A DNA stretch of 64,000 bases from an uncultured Gammaproteobacteria bacterium (GCA_951828235.1 OX639965.1:2458129-2522128), one strand, 5' to 3'. Shown: positions 3,993 through 45,515, numbered from the stretch's first letter. The notes: generated by a model from the sequence alone, not told the origin. A program made the numbers and translations.

Positions 3993-6422
3993 ATGAGAAC
4001 GCGGAATCTGCTTGCGGCGTCAATTATGGGCTTGATGGCTTTGCCGGTTGCGCAGAGCGCCCTGGCGCAAGAGGCTTCTTTGGAGGAAATTGTCGTTACC
4101 GCCCGGAAGCGGGAAGAAAACATATACGAAATTCCGATCTCGGTGTCGGCAATGTCGCAGGACCAGTTGGAACAGGCCGGCGTCGGCGATTTCCATGAGC
4201 TGTCAAAGCTCGTTCCGGGCCTGGACTTTCATGGCGTCACCGCGACAGCCGGACGCGTCAATCCGCAAATCCGCATCCGCGGAATGAACCAGCAGATCAT
4301 TACGCCCTCGACCCAGGTGGGCGCCCTGTTTTGGGACGGGTCTTATATCGCTGCCGGCGGCGGCTTTTTGCCGATCACGGACGTGGAGCGCGTTGAAGTC
4401 ATCAAGGGCCCGCAAACCGCGTACTTCGGGCGTAACACCTTTTCCGGCGCCATCAACTATGTGCCCCGGCTTCCCGGAGACGAGTGGGAAGCGGACGTGA
4501 CGCTTCAATATTCGCCTTCCCAGAATGATGAGTACATCCTTGCCGTCGGTATAGGAGGTCCGATAACGGACAGGGTGGGCCTGCGCCTTTATGCCGGTTA
4601 CGAGCAGAATGCCGGAGATTTCGATTTTCAGGACGGCACGCCCTTCGGTGTTCAGAAGGACCTCACCTTCAACGGTACGCTGACAATTGACGTAACGGAA
4701 GACTTTCGCCTGAAACTGACCGGATACTACGTGGACGCGGAGGATAGCGGCGTCAACGGCGGTGTCGATTCAAGGTTTCACGGCACTCCGACCAGTGAAT
4801 GTGGCATCGTTTACACAGGCGAGTACCTGAATCCGGCCTCGCGCGAAACGACTCCCTTTACCCGTACTATCGCCACCGATTTCGGCGGGTCCCACTTGTG
4901 GTGTGGCAAATACCCCGACGGCGAGCACTTGCAGTTCGGAATAACACAGACACCTGAGGGCTACTTCCCGGGCGGCCAGATACTTGGCGGTCGTGTTCTT
5001 GACGAAATTCACCCTCTGCTCAGGGAATACGACATCCTGAAGACACCGCCAAACAAGTTGGGTGGATTCAACCGGACCTACCGCGTTCAATTGAGCGGCG
5101 AGTATGACGTTGCCGATCACACACTGTCGTTCCAGGCTTCGCGCGCGGACACGGGAACCATTAACAACGTGGACTTCTGGTATGGCATTCCAACAGTCCC
5201 CGGCACGTCCTTTGTTGTTGGGACTCAGATTGCCACGCAGGAAACCTACTACGAGGTCCGGGTCGCCTCGCCGCAAGATCAAAGGCTACGGTATCTCGTT
5301 GGCATCAGCGACTATGACCAGCGCTATCGGGCCGGCTGGGTCCCGACCCGGCCGCAGCTGGATCCGAACTCGCCTGTCGGCGCAAGGGTGGACTTTCAGG
5401 ACAATGGGACCACGGCGCTGTTCGCATCGGTTGACTACGACCTCACCGAAGATCTGACACTGTCGGCGGAAGCCCGCTACACCGATGAAGAAGCGATAGC
5501 CGTCCTGCTGGGCAATAACTCCAATGCCCCCTGTTCATTCGCGACCGTGTGTGGTGAAGTGAACGAATACACCGATTTCATTCCCAGGGTGATTCTCAGC
5601 TATAAGCCGTTTGACGGGGCAACCACCTACTTCAGTTACTCCTACAGTTCCCTGCTCGGTGTTGCGACGCAGGCCGGGTTAGTCAACAGTGTTGCGCCGG
5701 AGGTCATCCCTGACGACCAGTTGGACGCGCTGGGCCTGTACACGGCACCCCAGGAGAACACGCAGTATGAGATCGGCTGGAAGCAACAGACGGACAACTG
5801 GGGCATTACCGCTGCCGTCTTTTACATTGACTGGAAAAACCAACCCTTCGCGTCCGTCATTCTGCTTCCCACAGGCGGAACGACGTCCTTCCGGGGACCA
5901 GGTAATTCCGAATACACGGGCGTCGATCTGGAAGTGCAGGGCAACCTGACGGACTGGTTCAGCATTCGCGGCACGCTCACTTATGTGGACGCGATCATGA
6001 CTTCGTTCTCTTCGCGTGGGTCGAATGAGTTCATAGTGCTCGGATCGGGCGGCTTGTCAGTCGTCAACGATGGCAATGAGGCGCGCAACACGCCGAAATG
6101 GACGGCGTCGTTAAGCCCGACCATTCTCAGTGAATTCGCCGGACGGGAACTCTTCTTCCGCACGGATTTCTTCTACGAGAGCCCGAAGTGGGCGGATTAC
6201 TCGGAATTCAACCGAACGAAATCGATTTTCCGAATCAATGCCCGCGTGGGAGTCGATCTGACCGAAAACAGCACCGTGGAAGTTTTTGGTACAAACTTGA
6301 CGGACAATAAAGTCCTGCCCAACACCAACGGAACGACCAGTGGTCCCGGCGGCAGCCGCAAGGCTTTCACGGCGGGCTACCAGAGGCGGGAATTTGGTGT
6401 GCGTCTGAGAGCGTCCTTCTGA
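3993..6422 (+). CDS. TonB-dependent outer-membrane receptor
   Basis: GAGGGGA RBS upstream of ATG 3993, followed by a signal peptide. Plug motifs EEIVVTARKREENIYEIPISVSAM and VEVIKGPQTAYFGRNTFSGAINYV. C-terminal aromatic residue (...RLRASF). Confidence 0.85.
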   Translation: MRTRNLLAASIMGLMALPVAQSALAQEASLEEIVVTARKREENIYEIPISVSAMSQDQLEQAGVGDFHELSKLVPGLDFHGVTATAGRVNPQIRIRGMNQQIITPSTQVGALFWDGSYIAAGGGFLPITDVERVEVIKGPQTAYFGRNTFSGAINYVPRLPGDEWEADVTLQYSPSQNDEYILAVGIGGPITDRVGLRLYAGYEQNAGDFDFQDGTPFGVQKDLTFNGTLTIDVTEDFRLKLTGYYVDAEDSGVNGGVDSRFHGTPTSECGIVYTGEYLNPASRETTPFTRTIATDFGGSHLWCGKYPDGEHLQFGITQTPEGYFPGGQILGGRVLDEIHPLLREYDILKTPPNKLGGFNRTYRVQLSGEYDVADHTLSFQASRADTGTINNVDFWYGIPTVPGTSFVVGTQIATQETYYEVRVASPQDQRLRYLVGISDYDQRYRAGWVPTRPQLDPNSPVGARVDFQDNGTTALFASVDYDLTEDLTLSAEARYTDEEAIAVLLGNNSNAPCSFATVCGEVNEYTDFIPRVILSYKPFDGATTYFSYSYSSLLGVATQAGLVNSVAPEVIPDDQLDALGLYTAPQENTQYEIGWKQQTDNWGITAAVFYIDWKNQPFASVILLPTGGTTSFRGPGNSEYTGVDLEVQGNLTDWFSIRGTLTYVDAIMTSFSSRGSNEFIVLGSGGLSVVNDGNEARNTPKWTASLSPTILSEFAGRELFFRTDFFYESPKWADYSEFNRTKSIFRINARVGVDLTENSTVEVFGTNLTDNKVLPNTNGTTSGPGGSRKAFTAGYQRREFGVRLRASF

Positions 6423-6435
6423 TCTTCGGCTTCCT

Positions 6436-6467
6436 GGACTCAGGACGGGCATGCCTGTCCTGAGTCC
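6436..6467. terminator. long hairpin between convergent genes
   Basis: Inverted repeat GGACTCAGGACGGGCAT/ATGCCTGTCCTGAGTCC with one mismatch. No T-run follows. Confidence 0.4.
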
Positions 6468-6521
6468 CTGGGCCGCCGGATCGGGGTTGCACGGGCGATT
6501 TGCGCTCGGTGCTGGCTGCTC

Positions 6522-6899
6522 CTAAATTCGGGCGCCAAGCCGCGAATTGAGCAGAAAGAGGACCGATGGGACCGCGAACAGGATCGGCAGCACTGTGTCT
6601 CCCTTGAATATGCCTGCCTGAATCAGGACTGCCGTGGCGAGCAGCAACAGCGCGGTCAGGGCAATGACGCCCCTGGCGATGGTCGCCGGACGGCCCGCGG
6701 GGATTCTCCTGAACGAAGCCTGGAATATCAGCACGATCGAGGCCGGGTGCAGCAGGTAGAGGGTCAGCAGGACCGTGACCAGTTCTAAGCTGAACCCGCC
6801 GAATCCCTGTATGGCAAACAGCATGACGGGAAAAATGAGCGCGGCCAGGCCGGCTGTCACCAGCGTCAAGACCCGCAAGACCCTTTCGACGAATTTCAC
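6522..6899 (-). CDS. small integral membrane protein
   Basis: Only the last 125 codons of ORF 6522..7475 are hydrophobic and protein-like. GTG at 6899 overlaps the upstream stop (GTGA). Confidence 0.5.
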   Translation of the reverse strand: MKFVERVLRVLTLVTAGLAALIFPVMLFAIQGFGGFSLELVTVLLTLYLLHPASIVLIFQASFRRIPAGRPATIARGVIALTALLLLATAVLIQAGIFKGDTVLPILFAVPSVLFLLNSRLGARI

Positions 6900-8257
6900 G
6901 ACGCTTTCCTGAAGCGCCAGCCGTACATCATTCGCCCGTAGAAATTGAACCACTTTTTCGCTTCGGCGTCTTCGAAGGGGTAGTCGGCGCCGAGCTGCCT
7001 GGCCGTAACAAGGCCGGTCACGAAGCAGGTTTCCTGGCTGTTGATCAGCGTGTGGGCGCCGCAGTGCCAGCTTCGCCGCTTGCCCTGGATGAAGCGGAAC
7101 AGGTGGATCAGGAAGGCGATGTGGCGCACGTCGTGCACGACGTGCTGAAACCACCATTTCTTGATGATCTTGCTTTCGTCGATCGGGCTGTTCGCGTTGT
7201 AGGTCACCAGGCAGGGCTTGTCCGAACGTTTCGCCCAGGGTTGCTGGTTGTGCATGATGTAGGTGATTTCGTAGTTGTCGGGCCTCGCGCCGTACTGCTC
7301 GATGTGGTTGCTGCGCGTGTCGAGCGCCCTGACGTCGCTGTCGGGGAGCACCGAAGCGTCGGAGTGAACGACGGTGTGGTTGTGCAGTTCGCTCTCGTAG
7401 CGAATCGAAGAGAGAACGGAGCCTTCCATGAAGGTCGGGTCGTGCAGCATCATCAGCGTCTGATTGGCGTTGCACGCGAACACGACGTCGTCGAAGGTCT
7501 CCGCCTTGCCGTTCTCGTCCTCTACCACGACTTCGGACGGGCGCCGGTACACTTTTCGGACGGGCCGGTTCAGGTAAATCCTGTCTTCAAAGTCGCGCGA
7601 GAGCGCCTGATAGATGCGTCGCGTGCCCTGATCCCAGGTCTTCATGGGCGTTGCCGCTTCGATATCGAAGAACTGCAGGTAGCGGGAGAACAGCGACGCG
7701 GGCATGTCGAACACGTTTGTCGCCATCAGGAAGTTGACGAACATGGGTTTGAGGATCTTGTAGCGGAAGTCTCCTGAATACCGGCCCCAGTTGAGCACCG
7801 TGCCCATGCTGACGTAGTTGAAGGGGTTGAGCGCATTGAGCACTCTGGACCGGGTGTTGTTGACCCGTCCGAACCGGTGCAGGCGTCTCAGAAGCTTTTG
7901 GAATCTCTCGATTTCCGGCTGCAGTTCCCGACGGATGTCGGAATCAAAGTCATGCGCATAGACCCCACCGTGATACTTCACGCTGTAGCTGAACCGCGTG
8001 TCGATGAGTTCGATGCCGTGCTGCTCCATGACCAGCAGAATGTGCTGGTAAACGGAGGGAATCAGCGCGGTGACGGAGATGTCGAACGGGATCGAACTGC
8101 CGTCGTCCTGCGGCATGTCGGCGGTCACGGCATTGCCGCCCACCTGGGCCTGCGCTTCGTATACGCGGAAATCGAAGCGCTCGGGATGCCGGCTAAGCGC
8201 CCACGCTACTCCCAGTCCCGAGACCCCGGCACCGATTATCGCGATCCTTCTCGGCAT
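6896..8257 (-). CDS. NAD(P)/FAD-dependent oxidoreductase (amine-oxidase-like, COG2907 type)
   Basis: N-terminal dinucleotide-binding motif RIAIIGAGVSGLGVAWAL. Start at ATG 8257. Confidence 0.7.
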   Translation of the reverse strand: MPRRIAIIGAGVSGLGVAWALSRHPERFDFRVYEAQAQVGGNAVTADMPQDDGSSIPFDISVTALIPSVYQHILLVMEQHGIELIDTRFSYSVKYHGGVYAHDFDSDIRRELQPEIERFQKLLRRLHRFGRVNNTRSRVLNALNPFNYVSMGTVLNWGRYSGDFRYKILKPMFVNFLMATNVFDMPASLFSRYLQFFDIEAATPMKTWDQGTRRIYQALSRDFEDRIYLNRPVRKVYRRPSEVVVEDENGKAETFDDVVFACNANQTLMMLHDPTFMEGSVLSSIRYESELHNHTVVHSDASVLPDSDVRALDTRSNHIEQYGARPDNYEITYIMHNQQPWAKRSDKPCLVTYNANSPIDESKIIKKWWFQHVVHDVRHIAFLIHLFRFIQGKRRSWHCGAHTLINSQETCFVTGLVTARQLGADYPFEDAEAKKWFNFYGRMMYGWRFRKAS

Positions 8258-8332
8258 TCCCCCGCCTCGGACTGTTCTTCTTCCGTACTTTAGCATCCTG
8301 CCGGGCAATCAACTATATGATTTCCTCCCGTT

Positions 8333-9436
8333 ATGTCCGAATTGACAACGATGCAGGCCGTCGCCGGGTTTCTTACGCCGACCGCCCTGTTCGCGCTGTT
8401 GCTGGCGTTGCACGTGGCGCTGCCCGCGATCCGCGTGCGTGGCTATGCGCACGGCAAGGTTGCGGGAACGCCGCCCCATTACCGGCTGAACGGGCTCCTG
8501 GTGTTTGTCGCCGCGCTGGTGATCTGGGGCCTGGAACTGACCTCCGCGCCCCTGGATTGGCTCTGGCGGGTCAAGTGGCACGCGCTTGCCGGGGCAGTGG
8601 CCCTCAGCGTCGCGGTGTCGGCCTGGATTGTGCTGCGCGCGCCCCGGGACGAGCGCGGGCTTGTCGTGCAGTGGATCGAGGGCCGTTCCTACAACGTGCA
8701 ATTGGGGGGGCGCGTCGACGCGAAGATGTTCCTCTACGTTTTCGGCGGCACCCTGCTTGCGCTGAACGCCGTGGCCGGCGCCGCGTACCACTACGGCCAG
8801 TACGGAGCGGCCGCGAACGTCGGTTTGTTCCTGCATTCGGCGATGTGGGTATGGTTTGTCGCGGACTATTTCTGTTTCGAGCGCGTCCAGCTGTTCACCT
8901 TCGACATCTTCGAGGAGCGACTGGGCCTGAAGCTGATCGGCGGCTGTATCGTCGTCTATCCCTGCCTGTATCCGATGGCGCTGTGGGGGACCGCGGGGTT
9001 GCCGGCGCCCGACATCGACCCTTCGCTGAACCCCCTGTGGCTCGGCGGTTCGGCGGCGGTATTCCTGGTTGGCTGGATGATTTCGCGCGGCGCGAACTCC
9101 CAGAAATACCTGTTCAAGCGCGTGCCCGAGCGCGCCTTCCTGGGGCTGATCAAGCCCGCTACCGTCACTGACGGCAAGCGCAGCCTGCTGTGCAGCGGCT
9201 TTTGGGGCGCCGCGCGCCACATGAACTACACCGGGGAGATCCTGGAGGCCCTCGGTATGGCGCTGGCGTTGGGACACTTCACGAGTTTCTGGTCCTGGAT
9301 CTACTTCGTCTACCTGACTATCTTCTTCGTCTCCCGCGAGCGCATCGACGAGCGCCGCTGCGCCGCCAAGTACGGCGACTTGTGGACGGAATACCGGGCG
9401 AAGACCCGCTATCGCCTGGTTCCCGGAGTCTATTGA
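8333..9436 (+). CDS. ERG4/ERG24-family (sterol-reductase-like) polytopic membrane protein
   Basis: C-terminal signature GFWGAARHMNYTGEIL...SRERIDERRCAAKYGDLWTEYRAKTRYRLVPGVY. Multiple hydrophobic segments. Confidence 0.7.
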   Translation: MSELTTMQAVAGFLTPTALFALLLALHVALPAIRVRGYAHGKVAGTPPHYRLNGLLVFVAALVIWGLELTSAPLDWLWRVKWHALAGAVALSVAVSAWIVLRAPRDERGLVVQWIEGRSYNVQLGGRVDAKMFLYVFGGTLLALNAVAGAAYHYGQYGAAANVGLFLHSAMWVWFVADYFCFERVQLFTFDIFEERLGLKLIGGCIVVYPCLYPMALWGTAGLPAPDIDPSLNPLWLGGSAAVFLVGWMISRGANSQKYLFKRVPERAFLGLIKPATVTDGKRSLLCSGFWGAARHMNYTGEILEALGMALALGHFTSFWSWIYFVYLTIFFVSRERIDERRCAAKYGDLWTEYRAKTRYRLVPGVY

Positions 9437-34822: not shown

Positions 34823-35175
34823 GGGGGCGACATGGCTTCGACGTGGGCCGTGAGACCCTTGGTGTGCATGCCGAGGCGCAGGGTACCTCGTAAATCCTCC
34901 TGCAAAACCAATAGTTGCCAACGACGACAACTACGCTCTAGCGGCTTGACCGCTAGCGTCTCTGCCAGGATTGCCTGTGGCTCGGTAGAGGCGTCGCTTG
35001 CACAGGATCGCCCGTAGATCCGATTGGCGCCTGCGGGTTAAGAGTCAGCTGATCACAGCGGTAGTTTATTCCCGCCCGTCGGAGAACTGCCGTTAACGAT
35101 GACGCGGCTAAGCATGTAGAGCGCCTTGGGCAGTAGCGCTTGCGGACGCGGGTTCGATTCCCGCCGCCTCCACCA
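34823..35175 (+). ncRNA. ssrA: tmRNA (transfer-messenger RNA), canonical copy
   Basis: Acceptor stem 5' GGGGGCG pairs with 3' CGCCTCC and includes the G3:U pair. T-arm GCGGG-TTCGATT-CCCGC, with ACCA encoded. Tag ORF 34917-34949 (GCC AAC GAC GAC AAC TAC GCT CTA GCG GCT TGA) encodes ANDDNYALAA. Confidence 0.95.
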
Positions 35176-35478: not shown

Positions 35479-35576
35479 TAAAGAATGTTTTTCTTTTTGT
35501 TGGGCAAGATAAACATGACCCCGTGAAATCCTGTGGTACCAACGCTTTCCGCTGGAAGTAATAGGGACGCCGCCTC
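35479..35576 (+). repeat. ~98-bp direct repeat, copy A
   Basis: Sequence TAAAGAATGTTTT...GGTACCAACG...GCTGGAAGTAATAGGGACGCCGCCTC. Differs at 11 positions from copy B at 45199-45296. Confidence 0.8.
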
Positions 35577-35680: not shown

Positions 35681-35884
35681 ATGAATCTGACCGTCGTAAT
35701 TCATGAGGCTGCGGAAGGCGGCTACTGGGCGGAAGTCCCGGCAGTTGCGGGCTGCGTAACCCAAGCAGAATCGTTGGAAGAGTTACGCAAGAATATTCAC
35801 GAGGCGATCGAAGGGTGTTTGTCCGTCGAAGTCCAGGACATCCCCCTTTCGGAAACGGACCGGATTATTGAAGTGGTTGTGTGA
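35681..35884 (+). CDS. hicB: HicB-family antitoxin (short form)
   Basis: MNLTVVIHEAAEGGYWAEVPAVAGCVTQAESLEELRKNIHEAIEGCL matches the UPF0150/HicB N-domain pattern. Confidence 0.8.
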   Translation: MNLTVVIHEAAEGGYWAEVPAVAGCVTQAESLEELRKNIHEAIEGCLSVEVQDIPLSETDRIIEVVV

Positions 35885-36087
35885 AAGCCGTCAGCGGAAG
35901 GCGGTTTTGCCGGTTGCTGGAATCTCGGGGTTGGCAATTGAGGCGAATACGCGGCGGTCATTTCATCTATGCAAAAGAGGGCCAAGATGCCCGCATTTCG
36001 GTTCCTGTCCATGGGGCCGCGGCGCTGAAACGCGGCTTACAGGCGCATCTGATGAAAATCGCGGACATTGATGAGAGCGAACTGTAG
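35881..36087 (+). CDS. hicA: HicA-family mRNA interferase toxin
   Basis: Motif LLESRGWQLRRIRGGHFIY...ISVPVHG. GTG start overlaps the hicB stop. Confidence 0.8.
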   Translation: MKAVSGRRFCRLLESRGWQLRRIRGGHFIYAKEGQDARISVPVHGAAALKRGLQAHLMKIADIDESEL

Positions 36088-36165
36088 ATCGTGACCCGCG
36101 GGCAACGCATTTCGATGCAGCGCTGCATTTCGGGCCTGGTTTCGCGCGTGCAAGGCCGTATATGC

Positions 36166-36520
36166 CGGGGCGACATGGCTTCGGCGTGGACCGTGAGACC
36201 CTTGGTGTGCATGCCGAGGCGCAGGGTTCCTCGTAAATCCGCCTGCAAAACCAATAGTTGCCAACGACGACAACTACGCTCTAGCGGCTTGACCGGCTAG
36301 CGTTCCTGCCAGGATGTCCTGTGACCAGGCCGGAGCGTCGCTTGCACAGGATCGCCCGTAGAACCGATCGGCGCCTGCGGGTTAAGAGTTAGCCGATCAC
36401 AGCGGTAGTTCATTCTTGCCGGTCGGAGAACCACTGTCTATCACGACGCGGCTAAGCATGTAGAGCGCCTCGGGCAGTAGCGCTTGCGGACGCGGGTTTG
36501 ATTCCCGCCACCTCCACTCA
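36166..36520 (+). ncRNA. ssrA: second tmRNA-like gene, diverged and possibly defective
   Basis: Aligns end to end with 34823-35175 and has an identical tag ORF. About 36 differences, including C at position 1, a C:A acceptor-stem mismatch, T-loop TTTGATT and ACTCA at the 3' end. Confidence 0.8.
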
Positions 36521-36741: not shown

Positions 36742-36961
36742 TTCAACACGCGTGGTTAGCTAGCATGCTAATCGAAGAACAGAAGGGAGAGTGTCAATGG
36801 CAACCGAAAATGGCACATTTCTGGCAACTGAAAATGGCACACTTTTGAGGCGGGCGATTGGTTGCTGATGTGGCTGTTGTGATCCGGACTGCACCGGCGG
36901 CCTTGCCTGCAGGGAGCGGAGCGACCGAAGGGCAAGGCCGCCGGTGCGGCGAGTCGGTTGA

Positions 36962-37759
36962 TCATGTTCGGGCTCCTTCACTTCGATTCTCGCTGGCGGG
37001 TCGCAGCAGGTCCTGATGAGCCCGCATCCGGTAGCTGTTGCCCCGGATGTTGACGATGTGGCAGTGGTGCAGGACACGGTCGATCAGCGCGGCCGCCATG
37101 ACTTCGTCGCCGAGCACACTGCCCCATTCTTCGAACCCCTTGTTCGAGGTCAGCACGGTGGAGGCGCGTTCGTGACGGGCGTTGATCAGCTGGAAGAACA
37201 GCACGGCGTCGTCCTGGCTGACGGGTAGATAGCCGATCTCGTCGATCACGAGCAGTGCCGGATGGGTCAGCACGCGCAGCCGCCGCGCCAGGTTGCCGGC
37301 GGTTCTGGCCTCGGTGAGTGACTCGATCAGCGCGGCGAGTGTGCCGTAGTAGACGCGGCGGCCGGACTCGGCCGCGGCGATCGCCAGACTGATCGCCAGG
37401 TGCGTCTTCCCAACGCCGGGCGGGCCCAACAGGACGACGTTCTCGGCGCGCTCCAAAAAGCCCAGTTCGTGCAGGGCCTGGATCTGCTCGCGCTTGATGG
37501 AAGGTTGGAAGGCGAAGTCGAACTGCGCCAGCGTCTTGATCGCCGGCAGCCGCGAAGAGCGCATGGCGGTCTGCAGCCGGCGATTGTTGCGCAGCACGAT
37601 CTGGGCGCTGAGCAACTGCTCGATCGCTTCGGTGGCAGTGACCGTTCCGCCATCAGCCTGGGCCAGGATCCCGTCGACGGCCTCCAACGCGCCGGGCATC
37701 TTCAGGTCCGCCAACATGGCCCGGACCCGCTCGCGCCGGCTTCCTTCGACCCGCTTCAT
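36962..37759 (-). CDS. istB: IS21-family helper ATPase IstB
   Basis: Motifs LLGPPGVGKTHLA, LLVIDEIGYLP and TSNKGFEEWG. Confidence 0.9.
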   Translation of the reverse strand: MKRVEGSRRERVRAMLADLKMPGALEAVDGILAQADGGTVTATEAIEQLLSAQIVLRNNRRLQTAMRSSRLPAIKTLAQFDFAFQPSIKREQIQALHELGFLERAENVVLLGPPGVGKTHLAISLAIAAAESGRRVYYGTLAALIESLTEARTAGNLARRLRVLTHPALLVIDEIGYLPVSQDDAVLFFQLINARHERASTVLTSNKGFEEWGSVLGDEVMAAALIDRVLHHCHIVNIRGNSYRMRAHQDLLRPASENRSEGART

Positions 37760-38073
37760 CGCGCCACCTGGGCATAAACCTCAAGGGAGCGGCGCTCCAC
37801 CGGCACCTGCCTCGGCACGCGCCGGGCCGGCGGGGCGTTCAAGCGCGCACCCAGGCGCCGGTACGGCTGCGGGGCCAGGGGTCGCAATGCCGCGCGTTCT
37901 TCGCGCTCGAAGCGGTCCACGGGACGCTCCCCGGTGGTGCCGTGCCGACGCACATTGGCCGTGTCCTTAAGCCAACACAAGGCCTGGTCGTTCAGGTCCG
38001 CATCGCTGACGAATGTGCGGCCATAGAAAAAACTCTGGCGCAGGTAGCGGATCGGTCGCTCCACCTTGCCCTT
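37756..38073 (-). pseudogene. istA: IS21 transposase IstA, C-terminal fragment
   Basis: Begins at ..KGKVERPIRYLRQSFFYGRTF. The upstream part of the gene lies at 41455-42159. Confidence 0.85.
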
Positions 38074-38135
38074 GTTACTGGTCACCAAATGCAAACTCAG
38101 CGCAACGGTCGCGACAGCCAACCGACGTCGTCGAG

Positions 38136-38384
38136 GTGACCCATCCATTCCATCCGTGGTCGGGGCGGGCGTTCCCGCTGCAGCGGTGTGTAACTACCGG
38201 CGGTGTTTCATTGGTGCGCTGCATTGTCGATGAGGCGACGGTTCGCAGCCTGCCGGTTGCCTGGACGGACCGGCGCACGGTGGACGACTTTGAGCGGCTC
38301 TCGGCGGGGCGTTCGCTGTTCCGGCCGGACGATCTTGAGGCGCTTCGGGCGCAGGTTGACGTGCTTCTGGACGATCAGAAATAA
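38136..38384 (+). CDS. small protein with THPFHP motif (DUF5372-like, from memory)
   Basis: VTHPFHPWSGRAFPLQRCVTTGGVSLVRCIVDEATVRSLPVAWTD. Start uncertain; GTG 38136 chosen. Confidence 0.45.
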   Translation: MTHPFHPWSGRAFPLQRCVTTGGVSLVRCIVDEATVRSLPVAWTDRRTVDDFERLSAGRSLFRPDDLEALRAQVDVLLDDQK

Positions 38385-38574
38385 GGGCGCATAATGATCA
38401 ATGTATTTTACGCAGACATGGAATCGGCATCGGGGTTTGGGGACGGTTCTTGCAGCACAGTTCTCGATATTCCAATTGTCTTACTACCCCATGGAGGGAA
38501 ACGGCTGGTTGATACTGTCAATGATGGAGTAATATATTATGATCATTACGGTTCGCTCAATCAGGATCCGCGCC

Positions 38575-39024
38575 ATGCCCGACAAAAAGACCGACCGCCT
38601 GCGCCAATCCGGCACGCTCAATCCGCGCCCGGACACGGTCACCGACCCGCTGTTCCACGACAACGCGTTCTTCGATCCGCGCGACCTGCTGCAGGTCCGC
38701 TACGAGATGGTGCGTTGCACCGTACGGGGCGTTCCCCTCAAGGAGGCGGCGGCCCGGTTCGGCCTTTCGGTACCCACCTGCGTGCGCGCCAACCGGGCCT
38801 TCCGCGAGGGCGGGCTTCAGGGACTCATTCCGCAGCGGCGCGGTCCGCGCGGCGCCCACAAGATCACGCCCGAGATCCTCGCATTCGTCCTCCATTGCCG
38901 GGCCGAACACGGGCCGCTCGGCAGCCGCAGACTCGTGCCCCTGATCGAGGCGCAGTTCGGCGTACGGATCCACCCGCGCAGCCTCGACAAGGCGCTGGCA
39001 AAAAAAACGGCCAGACAACGATGA
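38575..39024 (+). CDS. helix-turn-helix protein (transposase-associated type)
   Basis: MPDKKTDRLRQSG...VPLKEAAARFGLSVPTCVRANRAFREGGLQGLIPQRRGPRGAHKITPE. Confidence 0.55.
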   Translation: MPDKKTDRLRQSGTLNPRPDTVTDPLFHDNAFFDPRDLLQVRYEMVRCTVRGVPLKEAAARFGLSVPTCVRANRAFREGGLQGLIPQRRGPRGAHKITPEILAFVLHCRAEHGPLGSRRLVPLIEAQFGVRIHPRSLDKALAKKTARQR

Positions 39025-39320
39025 CCTCACTGCCGCCGGCGCTGTCGATTGATGTCGATAGCGTGCGCCGCTATGACGGCTGGCGCCGGCAATGGTGCAT
39101 CGGCGGCCGCAGCCAGGCGATCGGCCTGCTGTGCCACCACGGCATGGCCCGTGCGCTGACGCTAACCGCGCCTCCGGATCCACCGGCTGCAGTCCCCACC
39201 TCCGTGGCGTCGTCACGGGATCCGCTACCGGTATCCGAGTGCACCGCCGTGACAGGGGCGGCCGCCCGGATGATCCATGAGCTGCTCGTACATGAAGCGG
39301 GAGAAGGCCGCCATGCTTGA
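39021..39320 (+). CDS. hypothetical small protein
   Basis: ATGA overlap with the upstream gene and ATG..TGA overlap with the recombinase start. No motif recognised. Confidence 0.3.
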   Translation: MTSLPPALSIDVDSVRRYDGWRRQWCIGGRSQAIGLLCHHGMARALTLTAPPDPPAAVPTSVASSRDPLPVSECTAVTGAAARMIHELLVHEAGEGRHA

Positions 39321-41445
39321 GTCCATGTCCTACAAGGTCACCGACGATCACCGTCAGCGCGAAGCCTGTCTGTACATCCGTCAATCCTCCATGCACCAGG
39401 TGCTGGAGAATACCGAGAGCGCGCGCCGCCAGTACGGTCTGCGTCAGCGCGCGATCGCGCTGGGCTGGTCCGATGAGCGTATCCGCACCATCGACGACGA
39501 TCAGGGCAAATCGGGCGCGCACAGCGCCAACCGCAGTGGCTTCCGAGATCTCATGGCCCGTATCGCCGCCGGGGAAATCGGCCTGGTGCTGAGTCTGGAG
39601 GTCTCGCGTTTGTGCCGCAACAACACCGACTGGCACCAACTGTTGCAGATCGCCGCCATCGCCGACACGCTCATCCTCGACGAGGCTGGCGTGTACGATC
39701 CCAACGACGGCAATGACCGTCTGTTGCTCGGGCTGAAGGGGGCGCTGTCGGAGTATGAACTGCAGGGCATCCGCGCCCGCCTGATCGGCGGGCAGCGCAG
39801 CAAGGCGCAGCGGGGCGAACTCAGGATGCGCCTGCCGATCGGCCTGATCTACACCGACACCGGCGAGATCGACTTCGATCCCGACCGTGCCATCGTGGAG
39901 GCCATCGAGCTGGTGTTCACCACGTTCCGCCGCCTCGGTTCGGCGATGCAGACACTGAAATGGTTCCGCAAGAATGCTGTCTCCCTGCCTTCGCGGCCGT
40001 ACCGCATGAATGGACAGGTGCACTGGTCGGTGCCCAATCACAGCCAGATCCAGCGCATGATCCGCAATCCCCGCTACGCCGGCTGCTTCGCCTATGGGCG
40101 TACCCGTACCCGCAGCCATCCCGACGGCACGGTGCGCTATGCCCGCGTCGCCATGGAGTCGTGGCAGGTCTGCATACCCGAAGCCCATGTCGGGTATATC
40201 GACTGGGACGAATATCGCCGCAACCAGGAAACGCTGAAAAGGAACATGGCTGCGTTCACACGGGGACCGGGGCGCCAGCCGGCGCCCCGGGAGGGCCAGG
40301 CGTTGCTTCAGTCTCGGGTGATCTGCGGGCATTGCGGGCATCGGATGAAGGTTCGTTATGTCGCGGCACGCCCGAAACGCAGGGAGTCGGCGCGCTGGTA
40401 TTACTACTGCCAGCACAATGTCGTTCGCCTTGGCGCCCGTACCTGCCAGAGCCTGCACGGGGACAGTATCGACGCGGCGGTATCGGACTTCATTGTGGCG
40501 GCGGTGAATCGCCAGAACATTGCCCTTGCGCTGTCCGTGCGCGAGCAGGTGCGCGCCGAGTGCGCCGCCGTTGACCGACAGCACGCCAACCGGATCGAAG
40601 CGCTACGCCATGAAGCCGACCTGGCGCGACGGCGGTACATGGAAGTGGATCCTGAAAACCGCCTCGTCGCCGCCAACCTCGAGGCCGAATGGAATACTCG
40701 GCTGGGCGCGCTTGAAAAGGCCATCGTAGCGCGGGAACAGCACGGCAAGAGCCGCGATAGCGTGGCTTCCGGCGAACAGGACCAGCGCCTGCTCGAACTG
40801 GCCAACGACTTCGGCACGGTCTGGAATGCGCCGGCAACCGGCAACGCTGATCGTAAACGGTTGCTGGGCCTGCTGCTTGAGGACGTGACGCTAACGCGCC
40901 AAGGCTATCGCGCTCGTATCGGGCTGCGTCTTCGCGGGGGTAAGCCCTGGACGCTGGGGCCCGTCGATCTGCCGAAACCGCGCTCGACGGTTGTGCGCCG
41001 GCATGCCAGCGACGCGGTTCTGGTTGAACTGGAGACCCTGCTGTGCGAAGGGGCTGACGACGCCACGGTGGCCGCGCAACTGAACCGGCGGGGCCATCGG
41101 GACTCCAGAGGGGATATGTTTACGCGCCGCACCGTGTATGGCATCCGGAAACGGCTGGGTTGGCGCAGCGGGCTCGAACGCCGACGGCAGCGATTGCGCG
41201 AGCGCGGATACGTCGACGCCACGGAGCTGGCGACCCAACTCGGTGTTTGCGCGACGACCGTGCGGGCGCGGGCGCGTCGCGGCAACGGAATCGATGCCTG
41301 CCGGTTAACAGTGGGCAAACGATCGTTCACCATGTACAGAATGGACAGCGAGGCCCCCGGCAAAGCGCACAATGCACCGAGACTCAAGCGCCAAAGCGGC
41401 TGCAAGGTCGCCTTGTCACCACGATACGAGCAGGTTGCATCATGA
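39313..41445 (+). CDS. large serine recombinase
   Basis: Resolvase-type catalytic domain ACLYIRQSS...GLVLSLEVSRLCRN. Recombinase domain, zinc ribbon CGHCGHRM...YYYCQH, and a coiled-coil region. Confidence 0.85.
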   Translation: MLESMSYKVTDDHRQREACLYIRQSSMHQVLENTESARRQYGLRQRAIALGWSDERIRTIDDDQGKSGAHSANRSGFRDLMARIAAGEIGLVLSLEVSRLCRNNTDWHQLLQIAAIADTLILDEAGVYDPNDGNDRLLLGLKGALSEYELQGIRARLIGGQRSKAQRGELRMRLPIGLIYTDTGEIDFDPDRAIVEAIELVFTTFRRLGSAMQTLKWFRKNAVSLPSRPYRMNGQVHWSVPNHSQIQRMIRNPRYAGCFAYGRTRTRSHPDGTVRYARVAMESWQVCIPEAHVGYIDWDEYRRNQETLKRNMAAFTRGPGRQPAPREGQALLQSRVICGHCGHRMKVRYVAARPKRRESARWYYYCQHNVVRLGARTCQSLHGDSIDAAVSDFIVAAVNRQNIALALSVREQVRAECAAVDRQHANRIEALRHEADLARRRYMEVDPENRLVAANLEAEWNTRLGALEKAIVAREQHGKSRDSVASGEQDQRLLELANDFGTVWNAPATGNADRKRLLGLLLEDVTLTRQGYRARIGLRLRGGKPWTLGPVDLPKPRSTVVRRHASDAVLVELETLLCEGADDATVAAQLNRRGHRDSRGDMFTRRTVYGIRKRLGWRSGLERRRQRLRERGYVDATELATQLGVCATTVRARARRGNGIDACRLTVGKRSFTMYRMDSEAPGKAHNAPRLKRQSGCKVALSPRYEQVAS

Positions 41446-41454
41446 AACCCAAGA

Positions 41455-42159
41455 CTTGGTCTGAGCGCGATACGGCCGGCACGCACGCGGCGCAAAACCC
41501 CAGTGCGCAGCAAAACGCAGAAACTCCGCGTTCAGCACCAAAGACCGGCCATCGCCGCGACCGTCCGAGAGCACCACTGCACGCATCTGGTCGAACAACA
41601 GCTCCCGCGGAACCCCGCCAAAGTGCCCGAACGCGCTCTCCAATCCTTCGATCAGCACCGCCATCGTCTGCCGACGGTAGAAACGCAACCACAACAGCCT
41701 GGAATACCCCAGCACCACCAACAGCGCGTGACGGCGTCCCCAAGGCAAGGTAAAGGTCGCGAAGTCCACCTGGCCCTGGCGTCCCGCCGGCGTCTCGAAT
41801 CGCACGACCGCTTCCGTTGGCGCCCGCGGACGCACCGTGCGCACGTAATCCCGCACCCGGCTGTAACTGCCCGGATAACCCGCCGCGCGCACCTCATCAA
41901 ACAACCGCTGGGCCGACAACTGCGGATACTGCGTCAATCGATCCCAAATGATCGCCTTGTAGGGATCGAGCTTGTGGGGCACCCGGGCACGAGGAGAATA
42001 CCCACTCGCACCGCTCGACAAGTCCCGGTCCAACTGCCCCGATCCAATCCAACGGTGAATCGTCCGCCGACTCACCCCGAACCGCCTCGACAGCTCCGCC
42101 TTCGAGACACCCTGGTCCAAATAGTGCTTCAACCGCATCCGGGTCTCCCATCTGTGCAT
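41455..42159 (-). pseudogene. istA: IS21 transposase IstA, N-terminal fragment
   Basis: MHRWETRMRLKHYLDQGVSKAELSRRFGVSRRTIHRWI (HTH) followed by the DDE core, which contains the motif QVDFATF. Ends ..CRPYRAQTK at the junction. Confidence 0.85.
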
Positions 42160-42292
42160 CGATATGCCGCTCCCATCCTGTTGACTCCGCCAACAGGATG
42201 GACCACCGCATCCCGCTCGCCAAAACGCCATATGTGCCGTTTTGGCTTGCCAGAAATGGGAAATTTACGCTTGCCAGCTACAGAGAGTAGCA

Positions 42293-42496
42293 ATGGATTC
42301 TTCAAGCGCTCTTTTGACTAGAGTACTCGCCACTTTCGGTATTGACAAAGTCTCCAGCAGGGAGGCGCGTATGCTCCTAGCTGTCTTCGTCGTGATTGCC
42401 ATGGCTTTTCTCGCTATTGCGGCTTATCAAGCTGGTTACCAACACGGTAAGGATTTGGCAGAAAAAGCCAATGCAGAGGATGCATCCTACCGTTGA
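42293..42496 (+). CDS. small single-pass membrane protein
   Basis: MDSSSALL...MLLAVFVVIAMAFLAIAAYQAG. Its RBS AAGGGAGAG is split off by the IS21 insertion. Confidence 0.45.
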   Translation: MDSSSALLTRVLATFGIDKVSSREARMLLAVFVVIAMAFLAIAAYQAGYQHGKDLAEKANAEDASYR

Positions 42497-43139
42497 TTCT
42501 GGAAATTGCGCCTCGAAGCCAATGCCAGATTGGAGAGCAAGAGAGTGCGGACCGTGGGGTTCAATCGCCTGATCCGTTGGGGCCGAAGCTTGTTGTCGTT
42601 GTCGCGTATGTCGAATTCCCCTTCTTGGAACAACCGTAGGATGACCTGATCCATTTGCGAGCGCGTTGCGGCCGTGTCATTGGCGAGTTGATGATGCACG
42701 GCCTCAATCGAGATCGGTTTTTTCGAAACTTAGGCATCGAGCGCTCGCGTAAGCGAAACCAGCATTTGCTGTTGCATCGCCTTCTCATCCATCTGCGTAG
42801 ACTTGAACAGTTCAATCTCATCCGGGTTCTGGATTGCATTGGAACCGAACATTCCAAGATCTCCATTTCCGTAGTGCTCGAACGTGTTTTTCGATTCCCA
42901 GTGACGCTGCAGCATCACGTTGCGAACCGCAGGGTGCTTTGAGAGGTGAACGAACCACAAGGCCTGCCGAGAAACCCGAGGGCGGATGAAAAACGGCGTG
43001 TAGTAGGTGCTTCTGGCGCTTGAAGAATCCGGTCTTTCAAAGCTCGCTGAATGAGTGTCCGGCGAACGATTTGCGTTTGTCTAATGAGATCAAGGGCCCG
43101 CTGTCGGCTGAATCCTAACCTCTCTATGCGGTCTAGCAC
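42487..43139 (-). pseudogene. degraded ORF of unknown family
   Basis: Three protein-like pieces. Pieces 2 and 3 share a frame and are separated by a single TAA (about 42731). Piece 1 is in another frame. Confidence 0.35.
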
Positions 43140-43345
43140 CTCTGGTGTCCAACCTCAGGGGGTCACTCCAAGAAATGGGGAGTATTACTTCAGCAGTGAC
43201 AAGCAGTGACAAGAGAGGATATTTCTAGAGACGATGCACAGTTCTGTATACGTTTTGTCATTGACTTTGCCTTGCAACTGAGAAGAACTGCGGCGGTGTG
43301 AACACGCGGAAGCAGTGCGAGAGATGATGGCGCCCGGCAGTATTC

Positions 43346-43723
43346 CTATTCCGGCTCCGGCTCCGGCTCGGTAGGGGCTGGGCTATCCTCTTGTGAAGAC
43401 GGCGGGATTTCCGCACAGCCTCGCATACACCGCTCGAAATCCAACCGGCAGCGTTCCTCTTCCGCCCTGGACGGCACCTGGCGCGTTGTTGTCGTTGTAG
43501 TTGTTTGTTGCGGCGGGTAGCGCCGTGGGTTATACGGCCCCTGCTGCACTGAAGTATCAGTAACAGTATCGTATGCCCACGATAGGCAGTCGATATAGGT
43601 ATCTTCGCAAGCTTCCTCGCAGGTTTTCGGTTCCTCTTCAAAGAATGCGCCTACACCTGCGCATCCGGTCGCAATCAGGCACGCAAGCAGGGATATTGCC
43701 GCTTTGACTTGCTTCGTTGTCAT
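43346..43723 (-). CDS. Cys-rich lipoprotein, orphan
   Basis: Leader MTTKQVKAAISLLACLIATGC (lipobox). Seven further Cys, a T7 run, and an acidic PEPEPE tail. Confidence 0.5.
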   Translation of the reverse strand: MTTKQVKAAISLLACLIATGCAGVGAFFEEEPKTCEEACEDTYIDCLSWAYDTVTDTSVQQGPYNPRRYPPQQTTTTTTTRQVPSRAEEERCRLDFERCMRGCAEIPPSSQEDSPAPTEPEPEPE

Positions 43724-43772
43724 GGTGGGATTGTAGACCTGTCCACGCAAAGGAAATGTCCATGCTGGAGTC

Positions 43773-45023
43773 TTATTGGTCGGTATTCTTTAGGTCCTTG
43801 GGCAATTGATACCAAGAGCCTTTCTTCTGGCGCACTTGATGCTGAAGAGTTGTAGCATCAGGCGCTTGAACATCAAAGTCAATTTCGTCGTGGCTTATGG
43901 GCTGAGCTCGCTTAAGTTTCTCTAGTTTCGCTAGTAATTCCGATTCCGACATTTGGTTGGCTTTCTTTTTGGGGCGCGCTCTTGCTCGCCATGCCGGAAC
44001 GTGCCGATCGTATACTTTCGATACGAAGTAATCACCTTCAGTAGGCGGTTGAGCAGCAAAACTACTTATTCCTTTAGCCTTGACGTCGCTGGGCAATTCC
44101 TCGTAATGCTCATTAAGTTCTCGCAGACCACGTTTCAGGTCAGGTCCCCAAACAAACTCTTGGTCTGGCCGCAGAAACAGCGGGGCACACCGCTGGTGGA
44201 GGCGATCCGAAGACGCAAAAATTCGGCAAAACGGAAGATAGAACAAGTAGGCAATATCTACTCGATTGGAAGCACGTTCAGCGGAAATGAGGCCCGATTG
44301 CACAGCAAATTGAAAAAACAGTTCAACCTCAACCACGTGCGCGCAATACGGAGCAAATGAAGCAATCGGCCTGTAGCTGAGGGTGGACCATCTTGTAAGG
44401 ATGCTGTAGTGATATTGTTGATCTATTCCTAGGATTACCAATGCGAGTTGCGTCCTATCGGATCTTTGTTGGTCTGAAATAACAAAGTCTCCCGCCATTC
44501 TCCTCGCTTCATCGAGGTTCTTACACTTAGTTTCGCTCAATCCGAGTTTTTGGAACGAATTCGCAATACCTTCAAGATCAACGTTGTTTAGAGCTGTGCG
44601 CCAGCGGGCTGCGTACTCTCGCTCAAGATCCTGAAACTTCTTTTCGCGCCACCTGGAAAACGCTTCGCTTTCTGGAAACTCATCAAATGCCATCACGGAT
44701 TTGGGGCCGCTTTTCGCCGGTGTTCCGCCACTAACCATAATTTGGCCGGTTTGTCGAACGGTACCGCCCATCAATTCGTTTAGGCATAGTGCCTTGTGGT
44801 AAGCGTTGGGTATACCTTCCTTGTCTGGGAACTTATCTGCAATTATCCTCACTTCCTCTTCCGGATCGCGGGAACCCGTTTGTTTCTCTAAATCTGCAAG
44901 AGTCTCAACGAAAAAATATGGGCAAACATTAGGGTCAAAGAAGTGATCAAACCAGACCGATTCATCAACGCTAAGCGACTGAAGGAATGACTTGTCGAAT
45001 AGTGTTATCAGACTCATGGTCAA
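43773..45023 (-). CDS. 416-aa orphan protein, possibly a split PIN-like nuclease
   Basis: AT-richer ORF. Motifs LITLFDKSFLQSL, FFVETLADL and NRVDIAYLFYLPFCRIFASSDRLH place acidic residues in a PIN-like order. Confidence 0.5.
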   Translation of the reverse strand: MTMSLITLFDKSFLQSLSVDESVWFDHFFDPNVCPYFFVETLADLEKQTGSRDPEEEVRIIADKFPDKEGIPNAYHKALCLNELMGGTVRQTGQIMVSGGTPAKSGPKSVMAFDEFPESEAFSRWREKKFQDLEREYAARWRTALNNVDLEGIANSFQKLGLSETKCKNLDEARRMAGDFVISDQQRSDRTQLALVILGIDQQYHYSILTRWSTLSYRPIASFAPYCAHVVEVELFFQFAVQSGLISAERASNRVDIAYLFYLPFCRIFASSDRLHQRCAPLFLRPDQEFVWGPDLKRGLRELNEHYEELPSDVKAKGISSFAAQPPTEGDYFVSKVYDRHVPAWRARARPKKKANQMSESELLAKLEKLKRAQPISHDEIDFDVQAPDATTLQHQVRQKKGSWYQLPKDLKNTDQ

Positions 45024-45198
45024 TTGGTATTTCCAAGCTTAGTACGGAATCTTGATTGTGGACACGGCCCACAGATTGCTTGGAGACGCCACTAATGCGG
45101 CGGGGAGTGTATCATCTTGTGTAGCCGGGTGAAACAAACTAGTTTTTGGCGGAATCCGTCCCAAGCCCAGCAATACCAAGCGCTCGCGCAGCCGCCTA

Positions 45199-45296
45199 TA
45201 AAGAATGTTTTACGTTTTGTTGGACAAAGAAAACATAACCCCGTGAAAGCCTTTGGTACCAACGATTTTCGCTGGAAGTAATAGGGACGCCGCCTC
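45199..45296 (+). repeat. ~98-bp direct repeat, copy B
   Basis: Matches 35479-35576 at 87 of 98 positions by hand alignment. Confidence 0.8.
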
Positions 45297-45301
45297 CACC
45301 A
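45288..45301 (+). repeat. 14-nt copy of the ssrA 3' end (attR-like)
   Basis: CGCCGCCTCCACCA is identical to 35162-35175. Confidence 0.6.
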
Positions 45302-45311
45302 AACGCTCCCA

Positions 45312-45515
45312 ATGGGGCCGGGCGAGCCGCTGCGCCTGACCATGGAAGTATCGGTATTGCGGGACCGCATCGACACCCATGAGTCCCTCGCCGAAAAGCA
45401 CGGGGGCTACTCTTTGGCGGACGTGGAGTCCTATCAGCCCACTCCCGAGGAGGAAAAACGCCGCGCGGCACGGCGAAGGACCCTGGTTGCCCGTATTGTC
45501 AGAGACCTGACATAA
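45312..45515 (+). CDS. hypothetical small protein
   Basis: 67-aa ORF (MEVSVLRDRIDTHESLAEKHGG...). Coding status uncertain. Confidence 0.3.
   Translation: MGPGEPLRLTMEVSVLRDRIDTHESLAEKHGGYSLADVESYQPTPEEEKRRAARRRTLVARIVRDLT

Follow-up and report, generated by a model that had tools for sequence, protein, structure and literature searches.

Why would the transposase gene of an insertion sequence (IS) be split within the codons of its own catalytic motif, and what is the DNA that splits it? These questions are raised by a 64,000-nucleotide (nt) stretch from an uncultured Gammaproteobacteria bacterium (GCA_951828235.1 OX639965.1:2458129-2522128), here called the window, to whose full length all coordinates refer. 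An earlier note made from this DNA had described a four-gene insert, including a large serine recombinase (LSR), in the istA gene of an IS21 element. Our analysis indicates that the insert is very probably an autonomous, compact, LSR-driven element that homes by site-specific recombination into genes of other mobile elements, and one of whose genes, DUF5372, would be complete in the excised circle.

The host element has all the features of the IS21 family: an IstA DDE transposase, an IstB AAA+ helper, and terminal inverted repeats, of which the 44-nt arm on the istB side (36798-36841) is 80% complementary to its partner on the istA side (42233-42276). The helper ATPase gene istB is intact on the minus strand at 36962-37759 (PF01695, E = 4e-80; NF038214, 280 bits). 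The istA gene, on the same strand, is in two parts. Its N-terminal fragment (41458-42159; MHRWETR.. to ..CRPYRAQT) contains a helix-turn-helix (HTH) region and the first two catalytic Asp residues, and its C-terminal fragment (37756-38071; GKVERPIRYLR.. to the stop codon) contains the catalytic Glu, as assigned by alignment with IS5376 IstA. As the note had claimed, the frame can be read on both sides of a 3384-bp insert, running as ..CRPYRAQT-K as far as 41455 and being picked up as GKVERPIRYLR.. at 38070; a fusion of both parts scores 289 bits against the IS21 transposase model NF033546, covering its positions 2-293 of 294. The fused protein aligns to IS5376 IstA (PDB 8q4d, E = 2e-50), with CRPYRAQTKGKVER identical in both. 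The catalytic triad of IS5376 IstA is D124, D187, and E233 (PMC10122671), and the Glu of the KGKVE block in the window aligns with E233, confirming that the site holds the third catalytic residue. The insert breaks istA four codons upstream of this Glu, at the equivalent of the boundary between T228 and K229.

We next consider whether the interruption is a true insertion. Uninterrupted IstA proteins exist in public data, the closest (P0121) with 99% identity at 100% coverage and further ones with 96%, 94%, and 91% identity. An in silico empty site was made by deleting 38074-41457 and keeping one TT; excision of the window copy would restore CAGACCAAGGGCAAGGTG. Aligned with two public contigs, over 1,876 bp of L094 and 1,659 bp of L095, the window IS21 minus its insert is 99.8% identical with zero gaps, and both contigs hold a contiguous CAGACCAAGGGCAAGGTGGAG. 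Empty and filled sites thus differ by exactly the element plus one TT; the insert spans 38072-41457 and measures 3,384 bp when one of the two flanking TT is counted. Because the match to uninterrupted copies with a contiguous CAGACCAAGGGCAAGGTGGAG is free of gaps, rearrangement is excluded and the interruption is a precise insertion. The comparison with intact IS21 copies that the earlier note had proposed therefore gives an empty site, and the case that it feared, in which relatives lack an intact istA with a contiguous motif, does not arise.

The insert encodes the four proteins listed in the note, all on the plus strand. At its left end lies the body of a DUF5372 gene (38073-38384; CYWSPNAN..THPFHP..DDQK; PF17342, E = 3e-12), whose frame is open through the junction and which, as integrated, lacks both a ribosome-binding site and an ATG. 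An AlphaFold model of DUF5372 has an SH3-like barrel followed by two helices (pLDDT 75 overall, 87-93 in the core); a Foldseek search of the PDB with this model gave no significant neighbor, only generic SH3-like barrels such as PsaE, NdhS, and eS4 (E ≥ 0.086). An AT-rich spacer follows, in which four promoter-like sites are found against 0.7 expected. The best of them, TTGATA-18-TATATT at 38509-38538, matches 10 of 12 consensus positions and is a putative promoter for the HTH gene downstream (38575-39024; HTH_28 and HTH_32), which encodes 149 amino acids (aa) from the ATG at 38575 in an open reading frame (ORF) that is open from 38539; its homologs are also 149 aa long. This HTH protein is nearest to the N-terminal DNA-binding region of IS481 and IS630 transposases (NCBIfam, E = 1e-11 to 1e-10), and it may be derived from a transposase. 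ORF3 (39021-39320; 99 aa) has no match in Pfam, NCBIfam, PHROGs, or PADLOC. It is conserved, however, and homologs with shared motifs in 85 of 94 related loci indicate that it is a real gene.

The fourth gene (39313-41445) encodes the LSR of 710 aa (710/722). Its product has a resolvase domain (PF00239, E = 2.5e-17), a recombinase domain (PF07508, E = 1.6e-14), and a zinc ribbon (PF13408, Zn_ribbon_recom, E = 1.2e-8), and is of the phage-integrase type (phrog_95, E = 2e-52). The Ser nucleophile lies in LYIRQSS, which aligns with LYTRVST of the resolvase structure 3guv; across 28 homologs R23 and S25/S26 are invariant, as are the zinc-ribbon Cys residues. The start and stop codons of the last three genes overlap, as the note had it: the HTH stop and ORF3 start share ATGA at 39021-39024, and ORF3 and the recombinase gene overlap by 8 nt. 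Beyond the integrase, searches of the insert with PHROGs and PADLOC returned nothing; the only PADLOC hit (12.9 bits) is at chance level, and none of the PADLOC anti-phage defense models fits the insert. A 675-aa ORF on the minus strand (38557-40584), antisense to the HTH, ORF3, and recombinase genes, most likely reflects high GC content and does not represent a gene.

Both ends of the element can be placed to the base. The crossover dinucleotides are TT at 38072-38073 on the left and TT at 41456-41457 on the right (plus strand); on the istA sense strand the left one reads AA, the first two bases of the Lys codon. The earlier note had pointed to CTTG at both junctions. This tetranucleotide is indeed present (38071-38074 and 41455-41458), but relatives have only the inner TT in common, which identifies TT and not CTTG as the shared core, and their junctions contain no target duplication longer than TT. 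To the right of the left crossover is the family-conserved terminal arm GTTACTGGTCACCAAATGCA (38074-38093), presumably a recombinase-binding half-site, which doubles as coding sequence for DUF5372 residues 6 to 12. The right arm (41430-41455) carries a Shine-Dalgarno (SD)-like sequence and the DUF5372 ATG (41442-41444). The symmetry proposed for the joined ends is roughly right, with TGCAT at -20 to -16 in both arms, but the proposed center, CAAG-A-CTTG, must be shifted 3 nt rightward to GAC-TT-GTT. The family termini have the forms ..GGTGCAnnATGAAnc-n7-TT on the right and TT-nTnnnnnnGTnnnCAAaTGC on the left; the window element fits both and has the TT core, and a search of the window with its right terminus gives a single match, compared with 0.00 expected by chance. 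Joining the ends gives a reconstructed element attachment site (attP) of ..TGCATCATGAAACCCAAGAC-TT-GTTACTGGTCACCAAATGCA.., and the circle junction would read GAAACCCAAGACTTGTTACTGG for the window type and GATGTCCGCTCCTTCTTTCAAGTCC for its counterpart from the NGR234 plasmid. The common core and the conserved termini, together with a degenerate consensus for the target attachment site (attB), answer the earlier concern that homologs might insert at unrelated sites with no common core sequence.

To ask where related elements insert, we located the ends in about 60 loci by their conserved termini, joined the flanks, and identified the restored genes. About 50 of 76 distinct junctions lie at the homologous position (K/N-G/A-x-x-E) of rve-fold DDE transposase genes. 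The reconstructed targets give back full-length proteins, namely IS21, IS3, IS481/ISNCY-like, IS110, IS1380, ISNCY_1, and rve-type transposases and the single-stranded DNA-binding protein SSB. The interrupted motifs (a caret marks the cut) are ..PARxxxPxD^K(A/G)xVE in IS21, SPQS^NGMAEAF and GNPYD^NAQAESF in IS3 (207 bits to the IS3 model), HPAG^KGKIERWF and NGKIESFW in IS481/ISNCY-like genes, STD^NALVEGKN in a weakly IS481-like rve family, and RSPNL^N.. in a further rve gene. The y4b element of the NGR234 plasmid is similarly inserted at ANTPQA^KGRVERANQ of an ISNCY transposase gene. Sister lineages have other transposase targets: an IS110 gene at LTN^KNDRAD, adjoining the DEDD catalytic residues (L045/L046), an IS1380 gene near its N terminus, where the core dinucleotide is AT and not TT (L047), and an IS5-like ISNCY_1 gene (L024/L025); L042, also of these lineages, sits at a site without an identified gene. 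In every case the element genes are antisense to the target gene. Two assignments were revised: the target of L075, first taken for IS630, is by NCBIfam an rve IS481/IS3-like gene, and L044, which was automatically flagged as an rve motif (NGSGE), has an ssb target and was discounted by hand. The tabulation suggested in the note thus bears out repeated insertion at one homologous codon of DDE transposase genes, and its conditional proposal of homing into a conserved transposase motif holds for most junctions; the targets are not limited to istA or DDE genes, IS110 and ssb also being used.

The attB sites point to what is recognized. Seventeen distinct sites of the window clade, from three gene subfamilies, share the consensus GAC-AA-NGCSNNGGTSGAR, with G at -20 (17 of 17), GAC at -3 to -1, AA, G at +2, C at +3, GGT at +7 to +9, and GA at +11 to +12. 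Codons for the conserved Arg, Asp/Thr, Lys/Asn, Gly/Ala, Val, and Glu residues dictate these shared bases. What the recombinase recognizes thus appears to be the imprint that the protein motif leaves in DNA, which would explain hopping between IS families.

Recent insertions are evident in the family. Seven copies from long-read metagenomes are 99.9 to 100% identical over 3,392 bp, while their host transposase genes fall into three variants only 65 to 75% identical, all cut at the same codon. Such near-identical elements in diverged genes argue that the insertions are recent, independent, and site specific. Similarly, a recombinase 98% identical to that of the window sits in a quite different IS21, at ..CRPYRART^. 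Recombinase trees place near-identical enzymes in IS21, IS3, and ISNCY genes (L061/L064/L103, L074/L076, and L067/L071), with IS21 targeting seen in every major clade.

One monophyletic clade uses a different kind of target. Its elements are 4.2 kb long and split ssb at codon 42 (ATDESYxx^K); it comprises L038 (4723-8889), L033, L036, L037, L043, L044, L052, L053, L058, L059, and L087. Between the recombinase gene and the right end, these elements hold a complete ssb of their own (8173-8805 on the minus strand in L038), whose attachment region is different (IDRNSG). In one genome, three copies lie within three 83 to 93% identical copies of a repeat of more than 10 kb, which places the targeted ssb itself in a multicopy element. 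In L036 and L052, the extrapolated ends show an apparent GC or CG and not TT; these may be decayed copies or ends slightly misplaced by the profile search.

The DUF5372 gene is divided by the recombination site. At the right end of every element, an SD-like sequence (AAGGTG, GGGAGG, AGGAGA, or AGGAGG) precedes a start (ATG, GTG-ATG, CTG-ATG, or GTG) that shares bases with the stop codon of the recombinase gene or directly adjoins it, in the forms ATGA, GTGATG, or CTGATG; in the window, the DUF5372 ATG lies within the ATGA at 41442-41445. In a Rhodothermales clade, the DUF5372 start is an ATGA seven codons further in. Of 48 distinct reconstructions of the joined ends, 47 have this start codon in frame with DUF5372 and no intervening stop; the remaining one is a 4x-coverage contig with a frameshift. 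The distances from the crossover to the DUF5372 core (49, 52, 55, 58, 61, 91, 103, and 121 nt) are all 1 modulo 3, and the crossover falls in codon 5/6. In the integrated state, 23 of 54 distinct left ends lack any in-frame ATG, GTG, or TTG from the crossover to the THPFHP core, and an ATG is available there in only three; gene-caller lengths for DUF5372 vary from 50 to 228 aa. The architecture is that of a split gene, with ribosome-binding site and start codon at the right end and body at the left, so that DUF5372 is predicted to be whole only in the excised circle.

The element belongs to a broad family. About 100 related loci have the same gene set, termini, and TT crossover, from at least seven phyla that include Proteobacteria, Bacteroidota, Verrucomicrobia, Acidobacteria, Chloroflexi, and Gemmatimonadota. 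More than 7,800 proteins are related to the recombinase at E ≤ 1e-10, with at least 594 matches in species-representative genomes and matches at 880 places on 455 plasmids, mostly rhizobial; a near-identity DNA search of PLSDB with the element returned only a 51-bp chance match. DUF5372 forms 820 clusters at 50% identity and is found in 84 of 94 related loci, those without it being truncated contigs. The window element has the family synteny of DUF5372, HTH, ORF3, and LSR within about 3.3 to 3.4 kb, and element size is constant at 3.29 to 3.43 kb. Many matches are high-coverage contigs of 3.3 to 3.5 kb that start and end at the element termini, which is the signature of a collapsed multicopy repeat. 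Three loci (L020, L029, and L052) have 6.9 to 8.9 kb between matched termini, compared with 3.4 or 4.2 kb elsewhere. As each has only one copy of each terminus, they are probably elements holding nested insertions and not tandem dimers. In L097 (about 5150-7300) and in L008 and L011 (about 7290-8640), IS66 and IS110 elements are nested at or near the right junction, within the transposase gene that the element has already split, giving three layers of nesting.

From these sequences, we infer the recombination chemistry, the use of the promoter, and the roles of the three small proteins as follows. The element would be an IS-like unit of 3.38 kb whose sole recombinase is an LSR. The domain content (a resolvase domain with Ser nucleophile and a C-terminal recombinase domain and zinc ribbon) and the 2-bp core are those of the LSR family, and the junctions predict a conservative 2-bp-core exchange. 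Integration would be site-specific recombination between attP and an attB formed by the DNA encoding the P-x-x-(K/N)-(G/A)-x-(V/I/A)-E catalytic motif of an rve-fold DDE transposase, here IS21 IstA. Strands would be exchanged at TT/AA in the Lys/Asn codon that precedes the catalytic Glu by four codons. The Glu would thereby be separated from both catalytic Asp residues and the host IS inactivated, to be restored by precise excision. The family as a whole would home into genes of other mobile elements, mostly transposase genes and in one clade the ssb of a multicopy element, where target sites would be plentiful and conserved and their use would do the cell no harm.

In the excised circle, the promoter, HTH, ORF3, LSR, and DUF5372 would form one translationally coupled operon, and integration would sever the link between DUF5372 and its ribosome-binding site and start codon. 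The SH3-like DUF5372 protein may thus be a circle-specific factor that biases the recombinase toward reintegration or acts only after excision, control of recombination direction being the simplest role. The HTH protein, ORF3, or both may serve as a regulator or as the directionality factor for excision. A fuller version of this proposal holds that a phylum-spanning family recognizes rve active-site DNA, hops among IS21, IS3, IS481, and ISNCY elements, and silences transposons reversibly, that the split of DUF5372 is a topological direction switch, and that sister clades have been retargeted to IS110 and to ssb with a spare ssb; we regard that whole as about equally likely to be right or wrong.

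Could the distribution of these elements arise in another way? Insertion might be near random, or need nothing more than a TT, with survival inside mobile elements due to selection for a passive safe haven. The target genes are dispensable, and a few members (L042, L047, L024, and L090) do sit at unrelated sites. Yet some 50 independent junctions on one codon of genes of about 340 to 500 codons, in several IS families, are not the outcome of random insertion followed by selection; positioning is exact to the base, beyond what selection alone would give, the attB consensus is conserved, target genes largely show one preferred site each, and 100% identical copies occupy the homologous codon of 65 to 75% identical genes. 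We therefore consider this explanation very unlikely. Alternatively, the four genes could be passenger cargo of a composite IS21 derivative, with a recombinase that takes no part in mobility. This would require the module to have traveled with its IS21, and in L001 to L003 the same IS21 plus insert does occur at three places with identical IS flanks, which could reflect mobilization in trans. But uninterrupted copies of the same IS21 exist, the module is also found in IS3, ISNCY, IS481-like, IS110, and ssb genes with its own conserved termini and TT core, and its position destroys the IS21 transposase, leaving the cargo idea with exceedingly little to recommend it.

Precise restoration of istA on excision would also be expected of a domesticated programmed-excision element that switches on the IS21 transposase, in the manner of XisF at fdxN or of SpoIVCA and the skin element. 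XisF (NF041201) is in fact the best NCBIfam match of the recombinase, yet at 84 bits against a cutoff of 375 the enzyme does not qualify as an XisF equivalog. Multicopy, near-identical elements across diverged hosts, many phyla, and 455 plasmids behave selfishly, and a host would gain no evident benefit from regulating an IS, making domestication very improbable. The phage-integrase type of the recombinase might instead suggest the integration module of a decayed prophage or integrative element, left in the IS after a larger deletion. Such a remnant would scarcely keep a constant size, gene set, and both termini in about 100 loci or yield the many high-coverage contigs that end exactly at the termini, and there are no phage genes; of all the explanations we find this the hardest to credit.

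Some observations nevertheless weigh against an autonomous, motif-homing element with a circle-dependent gene. Not all sites are catalytic motifs: the IS1380 N-terminal and IS5-like ISNCY_1 sites and about five sites without an identified gene lie elsewhere, and since some members are off these motifs, the target rule must be clade specific. Within one clade, attB sites are fairly divergent in DNA sequence. In the window clade, a GTG directly precedes THPFHP, so that some translation of DUF5372 in the integrated state is possible, and the role given to this protein is a guess, with no significant structural neighbor (best E, 0.086). The circular junction, which the earlier note had proposed to look for, was not found in assembled public data. 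The joined attP of the window and rhizobial clades has 0 matches in JGI metagenome contigs, and a 140-nt synthetic junction matched 61 plasmids among 72,556 PLSDB records by each end separately, with no record spanning the joint. Such a null result in assembled data says nothing for or against transient circles.

The surroundings of the host IS21 are themselves complex. A transfer-messenger RNA (tmRNA) gene with the tag ANDDNYALAA lies at 34823-35175, and a second, near-complete copy 1.3 kb downstream (36160-36517) is 86 to 95% identical to the first and was not called by ARAGORN. A HicB/HicA-like pair (35681-36087) lies between the two copies. The arrangement resembles a small island that has integrated in ssrA, and the IS21 follows immediately. 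Further, a 98-nt direct repeat, 89% identical, occurs at 35479-35576 and 45199-45296 and brackets about 9.7 kb, which includes the second copy of the tmRNA gene, the insert-bearing IS21, and a low-GC stretch (42000-45500; 0.48 to 0.55, compared with 0.62 to 0.66 elsewhere); these repeats may be the borders of a second nested island.

The closest known relative is the y4bA-D/y4pH-K element of pNGR234a in Sinorhizobium fredii NGR234, which we take to be NGRIS-4. Perret et al., in the Journal of Bacteriology in 1997, reportedly found all nine copies of NGRIS-4 inside other ISs. Like the window element, NGRIS-4 has the gene order DUF5372, HTH, small ORF, and recombinase within 3,320 bp, the same type of termini, and a TT core, and it is inserted in the rve transposase gene of another IS (..PQA^KGRVE..). 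It differs in its recombinase, which is 46% identical to that of the window, and in its host, which is an ISNCY and not an IS21 element. The window element is best classed as a new, distant member of an NGRIS-4-like family. We found no description in the literature of the serine-recombinase chemistry, catalytic-motif target, family breadth, or attP-split gene of NGRIS-4-like elements. What appears to be new is that the family homes into transposase genes under the direction of a motif, with a TT core, that attP splits one of its genes, and that a sister clade targets ssb and carries a spare ssb.

If this reading is correct, it defines a widespread class of mobile elements that parasitize other mobile elements, homing to sequence kept constant by purifying selection in transposase active sites. 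It would explain the 1997 observation on NGRIS-4 in rhizobia, account for a class of "interrupted transposase" pseudogenes in annotation, and imply that ISs can be silenced reversibly. The family would also supply natural serine integrases with GC-rich attB sites defined by a protein motif, and closely related enzymes that accept visibly different sites should help in the study and engineering of integrase specificity. The splitting of a gene by attP would give an element a simple way to sense whether it is integrated or free, and could identify a new type of directionality control factor.

Among characterized systems, Tn4451/Tn4453 (TnpX) and Tn5397 (TndX) are similar in using an LSR as sole transposase, a circular intermediate, and a 2-bp crossover with no long target duplication. 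In Tn4451 the circle joint forms a promoter for tnpX, so that expression depends on the circle junction. The joint of the window element would differ in kind, joining coding sequence to a start codon where that of Tn4451 assembles a promoter. These transposons further differ in their resistance cargo, GA core, and relaxed or other targets, and their accessory genes are unrelated to DUF5372, HTH, and ORF3. The part of a large survey of LSR targets that we drew on (PMC10083194) places TndX and TnpX in a DUF4368 multi-targeting clade; the window recombinase has no DUF4368 match, and its targets are GC-rich coding motifs with a TT core. That part of the survey names ComM/Mg-chelatase, prolyl isomerase, and competence genes as targets and names no transposase motifs.

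Serine integrases that interrupt genes (SPbeta SprA at spsM, SpoIVCA at sigK, XisF, and A118 at comK) share the domain architecture, conservative integration within an ORF, and restoration of that ORF on excision, as well as the need for an accessory directionality factor. The nearest full-length structure to the window recombinase is in fact SPbeta YokA (SprA), although the similarity is remote (E = 3e-6). Phage and prophage elements of this kind differ in being 10 to 130 kb long and using one chromosomal site, whereas the window element is 3.4 kb, multicopy, and found at mobile-element sites. IS607 is likewise a small IS-like element moved by a serine recombinase, but it combines a small serine recombinase with TnpB and has little target specificity; the window element has no TnpB or OrfB_IS605 match, and its 710-aa enzyme has Recombinase and Zn-ribbon domains. 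Finally, group I and II introns, inteins, homing endonucleases, and IS1111/IS110 elements in REP and attC sequences exploit motifs or repeats kept by selection, at low cost to the cell. All of these differ entirely in chemistry, and the window element, having no splicing, would leave its host gene inactive until excision. The logic of homing is nevertheless the same, in that a sequence held constant by selection ensures that targets are always available.

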